NCBI GenBank assembly: GCA_016840405.1 | Contig: JAEOSK010000038.1 | Location: 1-25,968, forward strand | Direction: 5' to 3' | Origin: Candidatus Hermodarchaeum yapensis | GTDB lineage: Archaea; Asgardarchaeota; Hermodarchaeia; Hermodarchaeales; Hermodarchaeaceae | DNA: 25,968 bases | Shown: piece by piece, positions 14,589-23,547 of the stretch | How positions within the stretch are numbered: the first letter of the stretch is position 1 | Layout of the letters: every line of letters starts with the position of its first letter | The notes under the pieces: model-generated | Told to the model about the DNA's origin: nothing | Database searches by the model: none | The model's input: only the letters and a program-made list of their open reading frames with translations | Made by a program: the position numbers and the translations under genes

Positions 14589-15071
14589 ATGCGGAAAGAA
14601 CTTCTTTACGAGTTCCCCACAGTTCCCCCTGCTCAGAAGGCATTCAAATGCGTGTGTGACCGGTTAGGCCTCGAAGCACGTGAAGAAGATATGAGCGGGG
14701 GCTTAATCGCCCGTAGTGAAGACCGAACCTTTGTCGTTCGGTTACTCACTGAGAAAACGGCGCGGGGCACCACAAGAATTGATGTTCAAATCCGGGTATC
14801 AACCGATGATCAATTGGGTGCAGTAGTAGCCTGTTTTGGGGAACCCGAAAAAGAACGGGAAATCGCACCGAGTTCCAAGACCTTTGCCCAGACTGTAGTT
14901 GATACTGAGTATGCTGGTGACACGAACGCATTTATCGCAGATGTTTGTCAGCAGCTGGATATTCCCACTGACCGTTTTGGGAGTTACCGGGCCATGGTGC
15001 TCTCCACAGCACGAATGGCGGGAGCTCCAGATATGATTAAAGAAGCGGCTGAAAAACTCAAAACTCTGTAA
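14589..15071 (+). CDS. Hypothetical protein (160 aa)
   Basis: ATG after SD AGGTG; TATA-like TTTTATTA at about 14530; alpha/beta N-terminal part and helical C-terminal part. Confidence 0.75.
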   Translation: MRKELLYEFPTVPPAQKAFKCVCDRLGLEAREEDMSGGLIARSEDRTFVVRLLTEKTARGTTRIDVQIRVSTDDQLGAVVACFGEPEKEREIAPSSKTFAQTVVDTEYAGDTNAFIADVCQQLDIPTDRFGSYRAMVLSTARMAGAPDMIKEAAEKLKTL

Positions 15072-15096: not shown

Positions 15097-15264
15097 TTAT
15101 CCGAATCGTAATTCATAGTTGTCGGCTGTATGTCCACATTGCGGACAGACGTATTTCTTTTTCTTCAAAACACAACCCCGATGAAAGGAGGCATTACATT
15201 CTGAACATTTCAACGGTGTTTTCACTATCTTTCCGCACGCTTGGCACACATCATCAGAACTCAT
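15097..15264 (-). CDS. Stand-alone C4HC3 cross-brace zinc finger (PHD / RING-variant) microprotein, 55 aa
   Basis: MSSDDV-CQAC-x9-CSEC-x4-H-x2-C-x8-CPQC; SD-like GATGTGAT. Confidence 0.8.
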   Translation of the reverse strand: MSSDDVCQACGKIVKTPLKCSECNASFHRGCVLKKKKYVCPQCGHTADNYELRFG

Positions 15265-15355
15265 GGCATCACATCTGTGTAGACAATACACCGTAAAATG
15301 CCTGATTAAACGTTTCCCTAGTCACTTTCAGAGGTGATTTTTGGCTGTGGAAACC

Positions 15356-16276
15356 TTAGACTTGCTTTTCCTTGATGTAAGGGACGCCAATAGCTTTGGG
15401 TGGCACAGATCGACGGATAATACCAAGCGCAACAATCACTGAAATGTAAGGAATCATGTTGATGAAAGAGGAATAACCAATAAGCCATTCCCAGCCAGGA
15501 GCAAATTGCACTCCATAAGAAATTGCTTGGAGGAAACCAAAGAACAATCCAGCGAATAGGGTACCAATGGGGTTCCAGTTTCCAAATATCATTGCAGCAA
15601 GGGCTAAGAATCCGTTACCTGCTGTCATTCCGATAGTAAACCGAGAACCAAAGCCAATCGACATTTGAGCACCAGCAATCGCAGCTAACATACCGCTAAT
15701 AAGAACCCCATACATCCGGTAATTTTCAACACTAATCCCAGCAGTGTCAAGGGTACTAGGATCTTCACCCGCAGCCCGTAGTCGGAGACCGAAAGGAGTT
15801 CTGTACAGCAGATACCAACAGATAGGTATCAGTGCTAACATGGCGAAGGTGAGAGGCGAGACTAGACCAATAATAGGAACCCGAACTTCAGGAAGAGTAA
15901 TCACTTGACCCGAGGCACCTGCTGTTCCCCATATGACCCATAGCATTAAAGTTGTAAAACCTGCAGCGAAAAGGATGATTCCGGTTCCACTCACAATCTG
16001 GTTCCCTTTGAGTTTCACACTAATCACACCGTGAACTGCACCGAGAATCAGCCCAGATATGATAGCGGCGAAAACTCCAGTCCATGGGTTATCTGTGTAC
16101 CAGCTTGCAGCTACCGCTGCCCAGGCACCCATGAGCATCATGCCTTCAAGAGCAATATTAACGACACCTGATCGTTCTGAAAACATACCTCCGAGGCCTG
16201 CGAGAACAAGTGGAGTACCAAGTGTAAGCGTTGCTTGGATGATCCAACCCCAGAAAAGCACGTCAATGATCTGCAT
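15356..16276 (-). CDS. Nucleoside ABC transporter permease 2 (NupC/YufQ-like)
   Basis: SERSGVVNIALEGMML, TPFGLRLRAAGE and GFLALAAMIFGNWNP. Confidence 0.93.
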   Translation of the reverse strand: MQIIDVLFWGWIIQATLTLGTPLVLAGLGGMFSERSGVVNIALEGMMLMGAWAAVAASWYTDNPWTGVFAAIISGLILGAVHGVISVKLKGNQIVSGTGIILFAAGFTTLMLWVIWGTAGASGQVITLPEVRVPIIGLVSPLTFAMLALIPICWYLLYRTPFGLRLRAAGEDPSTLDTAGISVENYRMYGVLISGMLAAIAGAQMSIGFGSRFTIGMTAGNGFLALAAMIFGNWNPIGTLFAGLFFGFLQAISYGVQFAPGWEWLIGYSSFINMIPYISVIVALGIIRRSVPPKAIGVPYIKEKQV

Positions 16277-17877
16277 TAGAACTCACCTCCAAAGATAACA
16301 CCTTGACGAACAACGACTATGTAGCTCCATATCGCAAATACAAATCCCAGTATTCCAATGACTAATAATGGGATAAGTAAAGAACCACCGAAGATTAACG
16401 TGTTCACGACGCCTAAAATTATCAAAACAATAGACAGTGGGAGGAAGGCCCAAATAGCACGTTTTTCAAGTCTAAGCAGTGCATAGAAGACGTATAAACC
16501 AATGACTCCGAAGATAATCGCTAGAGATAAAGTAGCCACATGCATCGCCATATAGGGGTCAGTGAGAATCAGTGTTGGAAGGTTAGGAATTAGGTCAAGC
16601 ACCATAAGGGTTCCAAACATGCTAGCTGCCATTGCGAGTAAAATCATACTACCTATAAGTGCAAAAAGTGAACCAAGGAAAATGGGCAGGGATTTCATGG
16701 GTTCTTTTCGAATCCATTGAGCCCAAGAAATTTCTCTTTTAGCCAGCCATTCAACAATTTTTGGAGCTGCGACAAAGAGTACCACGAGCCCTTGAATTAC
16801 ATCAATCATTTCAGCAGGGACCCGTCCGACTGTCTGCATAGGTATAGCTCCGGCTCGGAGAAATCCAAAGAAGATTGCGCCAAGTAAGACCCCCATCGGG
16901 CTATTTGCCCCTAAAACGGCAACCGTGATACCATCAAAACCGAGACCTCGGGACCAGCCAGCGTAGAACCTGTGATAATAGCCTAGAATTTCGACAGCAC
17001 CTCCCAGGCCTGCTAAACATCCACTAAGGAACAATGAGATGACAATCATCTTTTTGGGATTTATACCTGCAGCTTCGGCAGCGGGTTCATTTAGACCTAC
17101 CGCCCGCATTTCATATCCGAGAACGGTATTTTTCAATAGAATCCAAACACCGATCACGCATAAGATGCCAATGATGAAACCAAAGTGGAGGTAGAATGAA
17201 CCAAAAAGTTCGGGAAGATAGGCAGTCGGCCATATTGCTGGTGTTTGTGGCTGTGGTTGAATCAAAGTTGGATCCCGTAATGGTCCTGCAGCCAACCAAG
17301 TGGTGAAGTAAGGAACTGCGATGTAAGTCATCATCATGGTTGTGACCACCTCATGGGCCCCACGGTAGGCTTTGAGGATAGCTGGGACGAATGCCCATAA
17401 TCCACCCACGACCGCTCCAATCAACAAAGCGAGTAATGGATGAACAAAGATTGGTAACATAGCCATAAAGCCGACAATTGCTGCAGCCATTGACCCCATA
17501 TATAGTTGACCTTCAGCACCGATATTGAATAGCCCAGCCCTAAAAGCAAGAGCCACAGAAAGTCCTGTCAGAATCAAGGGAGTGGCCCACCAGAATATGA
17601 TATCGGGTTGAAGAAGGGCTCCACCTATTAGAGTCGAAAATGCCACAATGGGATTGAAGCCCGTACCAAGCATTATTAGGGAGGCTACCAAGAGAGCAAG
17701 GATAATGGACATAATTGCCCAGCCCACCTGAATCAATGATCGCCTTAGATTGTGCCATTTAAAAAAACCAGTAATCTGTTCCCACATTGAACCCAGAAAT
17801 GTTGTCATTGAGCCGTCCATAGTCTTTGGTGGGCTTCCTCCCATTTCAGATTCGAGGTCTTTTGAAGAGTCAGTCAT
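16276..17877 (-). CDS. Nucleoside ABC transporter permease 1 (NupB/YufP-like) with a 4-TM C-terminal extension
   Basis: AFRAGLFNIGAEGQ, HEVVTTMM, GYEMRAVGLN and GFDGITVAVLG. Confidence 0.92.
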   Translation of the reverse strand: MTDSSKDLESEMGGSPPKTMDGSMTTFLGSMWEQITGFFKWHNLRRSLIQVGWAIMSIILALLVASLIMLGTGFNPIVAFSTLIGGALLQPDIIFWWATPLILTGLSVALAFRAGLFNIGAEGQLYMGSMAAAIVGFMAMLPIFVHPLLALLIGAVVGGLWAFVPAILKAYRGAHEVVTTMMMTYIAVPYFTTWLAAGPLRDPTLIQPQPQTPAIWPTAYLPELFGSFYLHFGFIIGILCVIGVWILLKNTVLGYEMRAVGLNEPAAEAAGINPKKMIVISLFLSGCLAGLGGAVEILGYYHRFYAGWSRGLGFDGITVAVLGANSPMGVLLGAIFFGFLRAGAIPMQTVGRVPAEMIDVIQGLVVLFVAAPKIVEWLAKREISWAQWIRKEPMKSLPIFLGSLFALIGSMILLAMAASMFGTLMVLDLIPNLPTLILTDPYMAMHVATLSLAIIFGVIGLYVFYALLRLEKRAIWAFLPLSIVLIILGVVNTLIFGGSLLIPLLVIGILGFVFAIWSYIVVVRQGVIFGGEF

Positions 17878-19466
17878 TGTGTTAGTTCCTCCGAAGGAAT
17901 CGCACGTTGTTCCCCTGCCATTAACAAACCAAGTTCACGTTCATCGGTTTCCTCTGGAGTTCTAATGGCTACGAGTTCACCTTTAAAAATAACAGCAATG
18001 CGATCTGAAACATTTCGAATTTCGTCAAGGTCAGCTGAGATGAGAAAGATAGCTACACCTTGGTCTCGCATTCTAATGAGCACATTGTGAATGTATTCGG
18101 TCGCTCCAACGTCTAGACCACGAGTAGGATGGGATGCGAGGAGCAGTTTGGGATTTGGTCCGATGGCACGGGCAGCCACTACTTTTTGTTGGTTGCCACC
18201 TGAAAGTGTTGATATTGGTTCGTCGATATCACGTAATCGAATATCGAAGTCTTTGACAAGTATGTTGGAATAATTGGTGATATCTAGGGCGTTCAGTAGA
18301 AAGCCACGGGGACCGGTTGCGAAAGGCGGTTCATGTTGACCCCCTAGTATGAGATTTTCCTTTGTGGTGAAATCTAAGATTAGACCCTGCTTTTGTCGGT
18401 CCTGTGGGATGTAGCCGACACCCGTTGCACGCATCTTTCGAGGTCGATATTTGGTCACCCTTTCCCCTTCAATGTAAATCTCGCCGTGATGGACTTTTCG
18501 AAGTCCCCATATCGCTTCGACTAACTCATCTTGACCATTCCCATGAACTCCAGCTAGTCCGAGGATTTCACCTCGCTTCACTTCAAAGGAGATATCTCGA
18601 ACGGCGGGAAGTCCTCGATCATCTTGCACATGTAGGTTCTCAACGGATAAGACGGTATCAGTTGGTTTGGCAGGAGTTTTCGCAACACGGAACACAACAG
18701 GACGTCCGACCATCATTTCAGCTAACTGTTCACGAGAGGTGTCAACTCTCTTCACTGTCCCCACTAGCTCACCACGTCGTAATACTGTAATTCGGTCGCA
18801 GATGGTCATGGGTTCTCGAAGTTTATGTGTGATAAGTATAATTGTTTTCCCTTCTTTTCGGAAGGTTTCCAGGGTTTCAAAGAGCTCATCAACCTCTTGT
18901 GGCGTTAACACCGCAGTGGGCTCATCTAAAATCAGGATATCAGCATCTCGATAAAGGATTTTGATGAGTTCTACCCGTTGTTGAAGCCCCACGGAGAGAT
19001 CCTGAATTTTTGCATAAGGGTCAATTTGTAACCCGTTTTCTTCTGCGATACGGAGAATCTTTTTTTCAGCGCTCCGGAAATTCGTGGGCAACGCAGGATT
19101 AATACTGGGTCTCCAATACTTCAAATTGGCAGTTAAATTCGCGTATAAGGGTTCAGCACCAAGAACGACGTTCTCTGTGACCGTCATGATGGGGATAAGC
19201 TTGAAATGCTGGTGCACCATTCCGATGCCAAGACGGATTGCATCCTGAGGAGACTTGAAATTAACTTCTTTGCCACGAATTTTCACGGTCCCAGAGGTTC
19301 GAGAGAGCAGACCATAAAGGACATTCATCAACGTTGTTTTTCCAGCTCCGTTTTCACCGAGAAGACCATGAACTTCTCCTTCTCCGATTCGGAGCGTGAT
19401 ATCACAATTGGCCTGTACGTTTCCGGGGAAGACCTTCCAGATATTTTCCAGCTCAATAGCGTAGAT
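17874..19466 (-). CDS. Nucleoside ABC transporter ATP-binding protein with two ABC domains (NupA/YufO-like)
   Basis: GENGAGKTT, GMVHQHF, LSVGLQQRVE, LDEPTAVLTPQE, LSGGNQQK and PTRGLDVGA; start placed at ATC 19466 after SD GGAGGTG (GTG at 19475-19484 is an alternative). Confidence 0.93.
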   Translation of the reverse strand: MYAIELENIWKVFPGNVQANCDITLRIGEGEVHGLLGENGAGKTTLMNVLYGLLSRTSGTVKIRGKEVNFKSPQDAIRLGIGMVHQHFKLIPIMTVTENVVLGAEPLYANLTANLKYWRPSINPALPTNFRSAEKKILRIAEENGLQIDPYAKIQDLSVGLQQRVELIKILYRDADILILDEPTAVLTPQEVDELFETLETFRKEGKTIILITHKLREPMTICDRITVLRRGELVGTVKRVDTSREQLAEMMVGRPVVFRVAKTPAKPTDTVLSVENLHVQDDRGLPAVRDISFEVKRGEILGLAGVHGNGQDELVEAIWGLRKVHHGEIYIEGERVTKYRPRKMRATGVGYIPQDRQKQGLILDFTTKENLILGGQHEPPFATGPRGFLLNALDITNYSNILVKDFDIRLRDIDEPISTLSGGNQQKVVAARAIGPNPKLLLASHPTRGLDVGATEYIHNVLIRMRDQGVAIFLISADLDEIRNVSDRIAVIFKGELVAIRTPEETDERELGLLMAGEQRAIPSEELTQ

Positions 19467-19569
19467 GGAGAACACCTCCACCACATTTGTTAGTGAAATG
19501 TCAGCCCTTTTTCGAAATGGGCGACATACCCTGTTTGCGGTTCTTCTAGTATATAATCTCAATGTTTGT

Positions 19570-19613
19570 CAAAAAAAAGAAAAAAGGGGAAAGAGGGGCT
19601 AGTTAGCCCTCTC
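19570..19613 (-). terminator. Hairpin plus U-tract after the binding-protein gene
   Basis: Minus strand reads GAGAGGGCTAA-C-TAGCCCCTCTT followed by TCCCCTTTTTTCTTTTTTTT. Confidence 0.65.
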
Positions 19614-19618
19614 GTTTC

Positions 19619-20749
19619 TTAGCCCAACCATGGGAAGTCAATTGGAACTAGATAGGTGCCGTTGGTTATACCTTCCGTAAGATCTTCGAGTATGTCGCGG
19701 GTGGCCGTTGGCCATGTCCAACCCAGAAGGGTTTCATTGTCTTCCCAACCTACACCACCGTTAGCAAGGTTATGAAATTGAAGACCAGTCAATGGTGTAC
19801 CAGTTACGCTGGCAGCTTCAATAACCCAGTAACATGCAAGATCGACGCGTTTTAGCATTGATGTGAAAACGACAGTTGGGGCAACGGGATTATCTGGATC
19901 ATCAGTTCCTAAGAACATCTGTGGACTGTCAACACCAATGGCCCATACAGGATAGGCGAGGGGGGTGGCGTTCTGCTTCACTGCGGAGTCAATGACTCCG
20001 AGACCAGATTTCCCGGCAGCTGCGAAGATGATGTCTGAGCCACCGGTATAAATTCCGTCAGCAAGTGATTCACCGAGAGTTGGGTTGTCCCATGCGCCCA
20101 CGTAGGTATGGACAAAATCGGCACTTCCGGTCTCGTTATCGAGTGCAAAGGTGGGGTTACTAAAGTTTGCACCCCAGAAGTAACCTGCAGCAAACTCGCG
20201 GATGAGAGGAATATCCATTCCACCCACGAAGCCGATTTTATCTTGGGTTGTCACAGTACCTGCTATTGCGCCGACGAGTGCAGAGCCCTCACCAGCTGCG
20301 AAAAGCAGTGAAGCGACATTCGGATATGTAGCGGGGTCAATGAACATGTCTACGATGGCAAAAGCTTGATCGGGATAGTCCTCAGCAACGGCCATTACCG
20401 CATCAGCTTGGTCGAACCCGACACTGATGATTACATCATACGGGTCCGCCCAGGGTAAATGGGCCGCATATTGGCGTAGGAATGGTTCATACTGTGCAAT
20501 TTCATCTGGCTCAACAAAGGTAAAGCTGATGTCAAAGTCATTGACAGCATCAACGGCTCCCTGGTAACAACCGTCATTGAAAGATTTGTCTCCGAGTCGA
20601 CCAGTCGCAAAAACGATGGCCACGTCATCAGGGTTTGGTGGAGCTTCCTTGGGTACAAGGAACCACCAAGCTGCGATAGCACCTCCAGCAACAATGATGA
20701 TCACTATGAAAATAATGGCGATAAGTCTTGTATTGCTTCCATTACTCAT
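19619..20749 (-). CDS. BMP/PnrA family nucleoside-binding protein with an N-terminal TM anchor
   Basis: GRLGDKSFND, GFVGGMDIPLI, DIIFAAAGKSGLG, AIGVDS and TSMLKRVD; SD GGAGG before ATG at 20749. Confidence 0.92.
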   Translation of the reverse strand: MSNGSNTRLIAIIFIVIIIVAGGAIAAWWFLVPKEAPPNPDDVAIVFATGRLGDKSFNDGCYQGAVDAVNDFDISFTFVEPDEIAQYEPFLRQYAAHLPWADPYDVIISVGFDQADAVMAVAEDYPDQAFAIVDMFIDPATYPNVASLLFAAGEGSALVGAIAGTVTTQDKIGFVGGMDIPLIREFAAGYFWGANFSNPTFALDNETGSADFVHTYVGAWDNPTLGESLADGIYTGGSDIIFAAAGKSGLGVIDSAVKQNATPLAYPVWAIGVDSPQMFLGTDDPDNPVAPTVVFTSMLKRVDLACYWVIEAASVTGTPLTGLQFHNLANGGVGWEDNETLLGWTWPTATRDILEDLTEGITNGTYLVPIDFPWLG

Positions 20750-20846
20750 ATTTGGCTCCTCCAGTTGCCCCGCACTAGAAATCGTCGACGTTAGAAGCAC
20801 TTTTTAGCGTTTCTAGTACGACTCATATCTGCGAAGGGCAAGAGAG
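20750..20846 (-). promoter_or_regulatory. Structured ~97-nt 5' leader; candidate cis-regulatory RNA
   Basis: Nested stems 20765-20770/20836-20841 and 20771-20781/20810-20820; TATA at 20871-20878. Confidence 0.45.
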
Positions 20847-20938: not shown

Positions 20939-21529
20939 TTAGATGTCGTGGATCAAACCACGTTTCCCGACCATAAATAGCTGAGTCGTCCCTAAAGAAT
21001 CGGTTGTTCCTTCAGCCTCATGGACATGACCACTATAAACAGCGAGTGGTTGTACTTCGGTGACAAACTCGCGGAGACTATGATAACCGATATGGGCTCC
21101 ACTCCAGGCCCTATCCACCGCTGTGCCATATGGAGGCGTATGGGTTACCAGCACCAAATTCTCAAGAGGCATAAACCGATTGAGAATTTGGTGCACTTTT
21201 TCTTCCGACAATCCAAAGGGGAGCCCAGGCATTCCTCCGCCGAGTCCCGCGAAAGTCTTTGATTTTAACACTACATATTCTCCGTGAAAATAGGTGAAGT
21301 GCGAACGTTCCTTGCAGATTAATTTCAATTCGTTGGCATCATCATGGTTTCCGGGCAACAGGTATACATCAGTGCCAACATCCAGTTGTTCTAATGTTTC
21401 GTCAAGTCCCCTCCCGAAACTCGCAAAATCGCCTAATCCAAAAGCGGCATCCATTTCCAGTAACTGCTGGCTGATTCGTGAAGTAGCGACTTGGTCTCCG
21501 TGAAGATCTGAGAAGAACAGAATCCTCAT
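20939..21529 (-). CDS. Calcineurin-like metallophosphoesterase (Icc-related)
   Basis: SDLHG, GD, PGNHD, THTPP and GHVHE. Confidence 0.92.
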   Translation of the reverse strand: MRILFFSDLHGDQVATSRISQQLLEMDAAFGLGDFASFGRGLDETLEQLDVGTDVYLLPGNHDDANELKLICKERSHFTYFHGEYVVLKSKTFAGLGGGMPGLPFGLSEEKVHQILNRFMPLENLVLVTHTPPYGTAVDRAWSGAHIGYHSLREFVTEVQPLAVYSGHVHEAEGTTDSLGTTQLFMVGKRGLIHDI

Positions 21530-21643
21530 GACCGCTAGAACACGCGGGCACCTATCAAAAAGTTTCCGAGAAAGATGCCCATGTGGAGTCTGAATTGGAC
21601 ACTGAATGTGAAATACAATAGGCAAGTAGCTAGTTGTGTGTTT

Positions 21644-22260: not shown

Positions 22261-23400
22261 ACGCCTATATTTACAGCCCCTACAACGTCCCGGTGAGCTT
22301 CTAATCCACAACAAAGACATTTGAACAACCGCCCTCGCCTTGTATTCTTTCGTTCACCACACTGTGGACAGATGCTTGATGTATGCCTTTCATCCACCAA
22401 TTCAACCGTTATCCCATATTCCTCAGCCACTTCCTAGACGCGACAAACGAGATATCGATGGCTCCAAAAGTTATGCCGCATAACGTTGGACTTCCGTCCA
22501 CCTCTCGTATTTCCCAAAATTCCTCTAAGATCACCTATCACGATTTTGATCACCCCACCCATCCATAAATCTTCCAATGCCCTCCGAACAATGGTGCATA
22601 CATATTGGCGATACCGAAGTTTCCGACGTCGGTACAAGCGACGGATCAAATTTGTCGACTCCGTCTAATTCATCTCTTTTGCCACAGATTTTAGCCTATC
22701 AATCCTTTTCGAGAGAAACCACCAGTCAGATAGTGCGAGACGCCCACTATACATAATCGCTTGCCGATCACCATCCACCAAGACTGTAAGCAAGTTGATG
22801 ACACCTATGTCAATAAAAGCCCTCTTCTCGGAGAGTGGTTGATGCGGAGGCTGAATCTCCACTGGTTGATGGCCATACCACTTACTTTTGATTGCATCAT
22901 ATTTGATGGTGAGCAAGCCCTGTTTCATCCAGTTCTTCCACTTGGGATGACCCTGCCATTTCACATGTAGTTTCTTTGGGAGTCGAAGTAAATTTCCGTC
23001 CGTGCGATAGAGATCACCGCGGATCAGAATGATGTGCTTACGTGTGTTAGTTAGTCGATCAATCCAGTAGCCCGGTGGTCGAACTCGGGTAATGTGATGT
23101 GGAAGCTGCCCTTTTTTCTTCAGCTTCACCAATGCAAAGAACGATCGCCACGCTTCTCCATTCTTCCGTTCAATCTGTTGTGCTGTTGCGGCACCGACAA
23201 CACCCTTGTATTTGTCATAGAGGTCACGCCATATCCAGTTTATATTACCATTAAAGAAGGATTGGCGTCGGCGGTAAGTGACTTCGTTCCAAAGTCGCGC
23301 ACAAGCGTCAGTAATAGTGTGGAGTTGTTGAGTTTGCTTTGTTGTAGGTGCCAATGCTATTGTGTTAGTTCGTCGCAAACTGTACATCTGAGATTGATTC
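22163..23400 (-). mobile_element. IS200/IS605-family element, IS1341-type (tnpB only); left end not resolved
   Basis: tnpB reading frame plus right-end motif GAATCTCCTGACTTCCGTTATGGAGAGTGTCAA; no tnpA seen. Confidence 0.8.
22203..23387 (-). pseudogene. tnpB: tnpB RNA-guided endonuclease interrupted by two in-frame TAG codons
   Basis: Three ORF-track pieces in one frame; RuvC-I FIDIGVIN, RuvC-II IVIGDL, Zn ribbon CPQCG..FKCLCCG and RuvC-III HRDVVGAVNI; TAG at 22667-22665 and 22436-22434. Confidence 0.85.
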
Positions 23401-23547
23401 AATTCAGTATTTCGAAAAAAACTTAATAACTCATATTTTCGACGAATCATCTCTCCCAATAGATTTTGACCTTTCTCACTGATATTAATAGGAAGAGCAA
23501 CAACGATTTGAATCAATGGTCTTGGTCATCGAATATTTAGGAGGCAG

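Follow-up and report, generated by a model that had tools for sequence, protein, structure and literature searches.

Among the small RING fingers of archaea, srfp of Caldiarchaeum has been examined by mutagenesis: I30Q abolishes ubiquitylation, and W58A and R69A impair it (PMC5654768). Together with the C4HC3-type RING fingers of Asgard archaea (PF13639, PF14446), srfp offers the nearest comparison for the finger analysed here, with a shared register of CxxC-x(9-12)-CxxC-x4-Hxx[CH]-x(8-11)-CxxC. The same C4HC3 ligand set is found in the RING variants of Nse1 and Slx1 (PF08746), which occupy the C-terminus of large eukaryotic proteins in a Smc5/6 or Slx4 context, and in PHD fingers (PF00628), exemplified by that of BHC80/PHF21A (2puy). 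Nse1- and Slx1-type fingers act largely as docking modules. C1/DC1 domains (PF00130, PF03107) contain the segment CxxC-x(n)-CxxC-x4-HxxC within the longer pattern HX12CX2C...CX2CX4HX2CX7C. Asgard archaea are a search ground for precursors of eukaryotic signalling modules.

The window, a stretch of 25,968 nucleotides from the Asgard archaeon Candidatus Hermodarchaeum yapensis (contig JAEOSK010000038.1), contains a gene for a finger of this general type, with the following features:

15100..15264, minus strand: coding sequence of the predicted two-zinc finger, 55 aa (translation, alignment of 18–20 homologues, dN/dS and AlphaFold2 model)
15097..15099, minus strand: stop codon TAA of the finger gene, at the same place in all orthologues of the genus
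15268..15272, minus strand: GTGAT, Shine-Dalgarno-like, 3 nt upstream of the ATG
15301..15318, minus strand: GGGAAACGTTTAATCAGG, putative promoter element of the BRE/TATA type, with its centre ∼44 nt ahead of the start codon

The minus-strand translation of 15097–15291 ends with the 55-residue microprotein MSSDDVCQACGKIVKTPLKCSECNASFHRGCVLKKKKYVCPQCGHTADNYELRFG and the stop. An earlier note, made from the letters of the window, had described a stand-alone C4HC3 finger with the spacing CxxC-x9-CxxC-x4-HxxC-x8-CxxC, and this spacing is exact on the translation. The ligands are C7, C10, C20, C23, H28, C31, C40 and C43 (below, Cys1, Cys3 and Cys7 denote ligands counted in order), and the motif accounts for all 7 cysteines of the protein. 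When all six frames of the window are scanned with a relaxed C4HC3 pattern, a single match is obtained, against none in 200 shuffles. The KKKK patch (residues 34–37) and a tyrosine two residues before Cys7 (Tyr38) are both present as described. The acidic SDDV at the N-terminus is also there; its Asp residues, however, lie at −2 and −3 from Cys1 with Val at −1, and not immediately before Cys1 as had been claimed.

Sequence variation among the orthologues of the genus shows that the ORF is under strong purifying selection, with a median dN/dS of 0.083 (median pN 0.116 versus pS 0.79) and variable columns distributed 24/15/53 over the three codon positions. The position of the start is fixed, the codon alternating between ATG and TTG, and GTGAT precedes it at a constant distance in 14/14 loci of the genus. 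Motifs of the Shine-Dalgarno type are complementary to the 16S 3′ end. In the second genus of the family, GTGAT is replaced by the Shine-Dalgarno motif AAGGAGAA, and a TTTTAAG element lies further upstream. A near-identical 'AGAGAAACGTTTAAT' is found ∼35–50 nt upstream of the start in 14/14 loci of the first genus, within flanking intergenic DNA that is variable. This element looks like an archaeal BRE/TATA box and, as a putative promoter, points to transcription of the gene as a unit of its own, with a 5′ UTR of ∼20 nt. Since the dN/dS is 0.083, variation is concentrated at third positions, the fixed start is preceded by both a Shine-Dalgarno-like motif and a BRE/TATA-like box, and orthologues are found in 17/18 genomes of one family, we conclude that the gene for the 55-residue microprotein is real.

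The earlier note had proposed a search for homologues across Asgard genomes, profile searches against zinc-finger families and a structure prediction. The first of these, run as whole-genome and profile searches, was productive. Full-length orthologues with 69–95% identity are present in 13 of the 14 other genomes of the genus, and a form of 70–74 residues in 4/4 genomes of the second genus (41–49% identity over the matched stretch). In a profile search of 400 Asgard genomes, the microprotein family was found in 17 of the 18 genomes of one Asgard family, the remaining one being 77% complete, and in none of the 381 other genomes, whose matches score ≤31 bits and lie inside larger proteins. The genomes of the orthologue-bearing family are mostly labelled Hermodarchaeota, and some Hodarchaeota, Odinarchaeota, Thorarchaeota or Promethearchaeota.

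Protein databases give a different picture from the genome searches, which recovered 17 orthologous ORFs. A word-indexed search of a collection of 5.8 billion proteins returned one close relative, a 56-aa hypothetical protein with 73% identity, and the window's own 55-aa product is not in that collection. An exhaustive search of 1.84 billion representatives yielded just four small homologues; its other matches, C2H2 repeat proteins, were treated as spurious. Because the protein databases hold few members and lack the window's own product, the gene is usually uncalled in annotation, in agreement with the suggestion that it is easily missed.

The 20 homologues share all eight ligands without exception, F27, K36 and the C-terminal G55 are likewise invariant, and K12, V14, T16, P17, K19, K34, K35, Y38, G44, H45 and R53 are nearly invariant. 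Across the family's own 18 genomes, K35 is invariant along with K36. Ligand 5 is always a histidine, within an FHxxC motif, and the residue at −2 of Cys7 is a conserved aromatic (Tyr38, or Phe in some sequences of the second genus). The loop between ligands 6 and 7 comprises 8 residues in the first genus and 14 in the second, with the lysine run present in both. The homologues have a pI of 8.2–9.5. Their C-terminus, ELR[FY]G, is also conserved; its Gly was considered as a conjugation signal and rejected, as one homologue extends past it and there is no GG.

No Pfam model scores above its cut-off on the window copy. The top single score is that of C1_2 (24.7 bits versus a cut-off of 26), which matches 20/20 homologues at E ≤ 0.01, followed by zf-RING-like (22.6 versus 26.6), C1_1 (21.9 versus 26.5), PHD (17.3 versus 24), Prok-RING_1 (16.8 versus 29.1) and zf-RING_2 (15.0 versus 27.3). 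Marginal passes occur among the homologues for zf-RING-like (one, 26.9 versus 26.6), C1_2 (two) and PHD (one). The PHD model matches 19/20 homologues at E ≤ 0.01 at most, and one of the eight that were rescanned individually passes (P0004, 27.5 bits); a PHD family scan of the whole genome gave none above the cut-off. The profile searches thus gave a divided answer, with PHD, zf-RING-like and Prok-RING_1 all failing on the window copy while single orthologues pass zf-RING-like or PHD. The HVO_2753 family (PF07754) was considered and set aside, as it is absent on the finger ORF at E ≤ 1, and the genome's true homologue (61.7 bits) is encoded elsewhere, at C13:19680–19814.

The two families with the highest of these scores differ from the microprotein in several respects. 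C1/DC1 domains share the segment CxxC-x(n)-CxxC-x4-HxxC, and only the last two thirds of the C1 model are matched. The microprotein has no N-terminal His ligand and ends with a CxxC, whereas C1 domains end with a single Cys, and the window copy is below the cut-off. The Nse1/Slx1 variants share the C4HC3 set, are matched from end to end (residues 7–43 to positions 1–43 of the 43 in the model, 22.6 bits) and are among the best structural matches of the microprotein model. In contrast to the microprotein, they belong to large eukaryotic proteins and have longer last loops, and the Smc5/6 or Slx4 context is absent here.

A single-sequence search of the PDB was dominated by C2H2 artefacts. In a PDB-sequence profile search, PHD fingers lead the matches after the multi-domain C2H2 design Aart, also an artefact, with BHC80 (2puy, E 1.1e-4) followed by PHF2 and Cph2 and the PHD matches ranging from E 1e-4 to 1e-3. 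The alignment to 2puy places D5 over the Asp that contacts unmodified H3K4, which we take to be Asp489 of BHC80. The comparisons that tell most are those made by hhalign with RING fingers from Asgard archaea. A PCI+RING protein, whose finger scores 39 bits with zf-RING_2, is matched with a probability of 94.6% (E 6.6e-8), a second Asgard RING with 88.6%, and the genome's own RING paralogues, including the RING of its ubiquitin operon, with 86.8% (E 4e-6) and all eight ligands in register. In the paralogue alignment the lysine run lies over a conserved KVKG, and [YE]EL follows the last CxxC in both. Further features common to the microprotein and the srfp/Asgard RINGs are the small size of the finger, the FH motif, the Lys-rich stretch before Cys7 and the CP.C motif, with hhalign probabilities of 87–95% overall. 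The top non-family matches of the microprotein profile in other Asgard genomes are the C4HC3 fingers of PCI+RING and vWA+RING proteins (zf-RING_2 39 and 30.6 bits), and in the ESM Atlas the closest clusters bear the name 'RING-type', some with Prok-RING_1. By these profile comparisons, the microprotein is homologous to RINGs, and by the genome searches it is lineage-restricted.

CxxC-x4-HxxC was taken in the earlier note as the spacing of eukaryotic PHD fingers, the Nse1 RING variant and Rubicon-homology zinc fingers. Bona fide Asgard RINGs that pass zf-RING_2 use the same C4HC3 set, so, as judged from these sequences, this signature is the normal spelling of Asgard RING fingers and alone is not diagnostic of PHD. 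Part of the PHD proposal has held, namely the C4HC3 set, the aromatic at −2 of Cys7 and the acidic residue at −2 of Cys1 that aligns in 2puy; membership in the Pfam family has not (17.3 versus 24 bits). A PHD-looking C4HC3 finger in an Asgard genome is thus no evidence for chromatin readers. Multidomain PCI or vWA proteins with C4HC3-type RING fingers are encoded in two of the Asgard genomes (L087 in G127 and L089 in G133).

An AlphaFold2 (AF2) model calculated from a 20-sequence alignment has a mean pLDDT of 78 and consists of short β-hairpins around each knuckle and a one-turn helix that begins at H28/C31. In an exhaustive VIA-align search, RING, U-box and ZZ domains make up almost the whole top 50, aligned over residues 1–55 with Z of 4–5.4 and rmsd of 2.1–3.3 Å; such fold-search scores (Z about 5) are modest, as expected for 55 residues, and not decisive. 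Foldseek against the PDB gave no match at E ≤ 0.001; its best rows are TRIM RINGs, Nse1, Slx1 and Ring1b, with TM-scores of 0.52–0.60, rmsd of 2.5–3 Å and E > 0.04. The small zinc proteins of archaeal ribosomes, in which the knuckles are sequential, superpose with TM-scores of 0.34–0.42 and an rmsd above 4 Å (HVO_2753 type, 0.34). The model therefore does not resemble the two sequential zinc ribbons that the earlier note had named as the outcome contrary to its proposal. A fold of the cross-brace class is the favoured reading of the model, with the pairing of the ligands deduced from the fold matches and homology.

The microprotein is found in a genome with ubiquitin, two E2-like genes (contigs C19 and C40) and several RING paralogues. 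The ubiquitin cluster at C19:26407–28898 comprises an E2-like gene (minus strand) together with genes for a coiled-coil protein (179 aa), a RING (82 aa) and a ubiquitin that ends in GG (78 aa). This operon RING carries V29, W58 and R69 and passes both Prok-RING_1 and zf-RING_2. Three further paralogues of ∼175 aa (L002, L005 and L008, on contigs C34, C57 and C56) each carry a hydrophobic N-terminal segment and a zinc ribbon ahead of a CxxC-x4-HxxH RING at the C-terminus, and may be membrane-anchored E3s.

At the positions equivalent to those probed in srfp, the microprotein has diverged. Ala9, after Cys1, is aligned to an invariant Val of the RING paralogues, and the second genus has Val here. 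The helix following ligand 6 is ∼2 residues shorter than in srfp and the Asgard RINGs, as seen from the alignment, in which the 'EW'/'WI' of the RING helix faces a gap of two residues, and has no conserved Trp; position 33, the counterpart of the Trp in the hhalign alignment, varies between L, F, Y and K and is Phe or Tyr in many orthologues. The linchpin Arg/Lys is replaced by Gly44, aligned to Arg69, in 19/20 sequences. Some active RINGs lack the linchpin Arg. The microprotein further differs from the srfp/Asgard RINGs in lacking a flanking region, in lying outside the ubiquitin operon and in scoring below every RING Pfam cut-off (window copy). The alternative put forward in the earlier note, a RING-type E3, is weakened by this comparison, with the counterparts of I30, W58 and R69 being Ala, deleted or variable, and Gly, respectively.

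We suggest that the 55-residue microprotein, the product of an independently transcribed gene, binds two zinc ions in an interleaved cross-brace of the RING/PHD/C1 class, with C7/C10/H28/C31 as the predicted site 1 and C20/C23/C40/C43 as the predicted site 2. Its probable ancestors are the C4HC3-type RING fingers widespread in Asgard archaea, of which it would retain just the bare finger. The E2-docking surface would have been lost through the shortened helix (by about two residues) without a conserved Trp, the Ala after Cys1 in this genus and the Gly at the linchpin, and the almost invariant lysine run appears to fill the equivalent stretch. The basic hairpin, together with the acidic N-terminus, may bind an acidic partner, for instance nucleic acid, an acidic stretch of a protein or anionic lipid. 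From the lost E2-docking features and the lysine run, we therefore propose that this RING-derived microprotein serves as a non-catalytic docking or regulatory module and not as an E2-activating ubiquitin ligase, a reading to which we assign a probability of roughly one half, zinc stoichiometry, topology, loss of E3 activity and type of ligand all being inferred. The family, strongly constrained and usually uncalled, would then represent a RING reduced to its zinc core with a poly-lysine surface, and a simple test case for the role of a RING scaffold that no longer has a ligase surface.

A functional minimal RING E3 or E2 cofactor, which like srfp would dock E2∼Ub and promote transfer, is unlikely in our estimate. 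It would account for the homology to Asgard RINGs and for the presence of ubiquitin, two E2-like genes and RING paralogues in the genome; moreover, the Pro after Cys7 is mostly kept among the homologues, the second genus has Val after Cys1, and one orthologue passes zf-RING-like. These points are opposed by the Ala after Cys1 in this genus, the short helix without a conserved Trp and the near-universal Gly at the linchpin, given that the equivalent mutations in srfp impair activity (PMC5654768). The microprotein also has no substrate-binding region, and its gene is unlinked to ubiquitin, E1 or E2, with the ubiquitin cluster having its own canonical RING. A PHD-like peptide reader, in which the acidic N-terminus and the β-strand before Cys3 bind an unmodified Lys/Arg tail such as the histone PREKTTR, seems improbable to us. 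The host does encode a histone (L045:1474–1713, contig C14) that starts with a short extension, MPREKTTRI..., and has a basic tail, KQWKKTRR, at its C-terminus; its N-terminal peptide is PREKTTRIVPLA, and the start MPREK[TS]TRI is conserved in both genera, with R2, K4 and T6 as in H3. The finger itself offers the C4HC3 set with FHxxC[VI] and the aromatic at −2 of Cys7, the PHD fingers that lead the PDB profile matches besides Aart, with D5 over the Asp contacting K4me0, and the one homologue that passes Pfam PHD (27.5 bits); the positive support for a histone reader is motif resemblance. In >100 Asgard genomes from families without the microprotein, however, the same histone N-terminus is matched starting at residue 1, so there is no phyletic link between tail and finger. 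The window copy scores 17.3 against the PHD cut-off of 24, true Asgard RINGs have the same C4HC3 set, the structural matches favour RING/U-box, and a strongly basic finger with a poly-Lys hairpin would be an odd receptor for a basic tail. The 8-residue loop between ligands 6 and 7 is short for a PHD finger, in which this loop is usually longer, and the nearest demonstrable relatives of the microprotein are RINGs. A literature search found no paper dealing with Asgard PHD fingers, and the published description of Hermodarchaeota makes no mention of RING, ubiquitin or histones. Were a reader of PREKTTR nevertheless present, a chromatin 'reader' module would be older than eukaryotes.

An architecture of two sequential zinc knuckle pairs, as in a small HVO_2753-like protein that binds nucleic acid or associates with ribosomes, is to our mind the least probable explanation. 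It would fit a basic microprotein whose four CxxC/HxxC pairs are separated by short spacers, and weak matches to the ribosome-bound small zinc proteins 9fhl_C and 9znf_BV were obtained. The structural comparison disfavours it (TM-scores of 0.34–0.42 and rmsd above 4 Å, versus 0.52–0.60 and 2.5–3 Å for RINGs), as do the lack of a PF07754 match on the ORF at E ≤ 1, with the true homologue encoded at another locus, the invariance of His as ligand 5 and the register-perfect alignment with RINGs. The most far-reaching reading, a PHD-like reader of the unmodified histone PREKTTR extension or, as a second possibility, an inactive RING partner regulating the lineage's expanded set of RING E3s, we regard as improbable. 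If true, either histone-tail binding or regulation of the ubiquitin system would bear directly on how chromatin or ubiquitin signalling arose in eukaryotes.

The surroundings of the finger gene differ between the two genera, and gene context points to no partner or ligand. Genes for ubiquitin, E1, E2 and JAB proteins are not among its neighbours, the ubiquitin/E2/RING cluster being on contig C19. In the first genus, the finger gene follows a nucleoside-type ABC transporter operon; in the second, this operon is missing and the gene upstream encodes a metallophosphoesterase. In the window this operon (15356–20800, minus strand) encodes a Bmp/PnrA-like binding protein, an ATPase and two permeases, and is located between a metallophosphoesterase gene (20939–21625) and the finger gene. 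The neighbours common to both genera are just a convergent 160-aa gene and a PLD-like gene. The convergent gene (14589–15071, plus strand) encodes a protein of 160–163 aa with no Pfam match and is arranged tail-to-tail with the finger gene in both genera. Its AF2 model (pLDDT 91) consists of an N-terminal α/β domain and a C-terminal helical part; as its structural matches are generic α/β proteins only (best Z 8.2), it was not retained as a functional lead or partner. Further along the window, the C-terminus of a 283-aa ORF (22665–23516, minus strand) matches the start of the OrfB_IS605 transposase model with 28.1 bits, slightly under the cut-off of 30.5, and this ORF may be a truncated TnpB-like gene.
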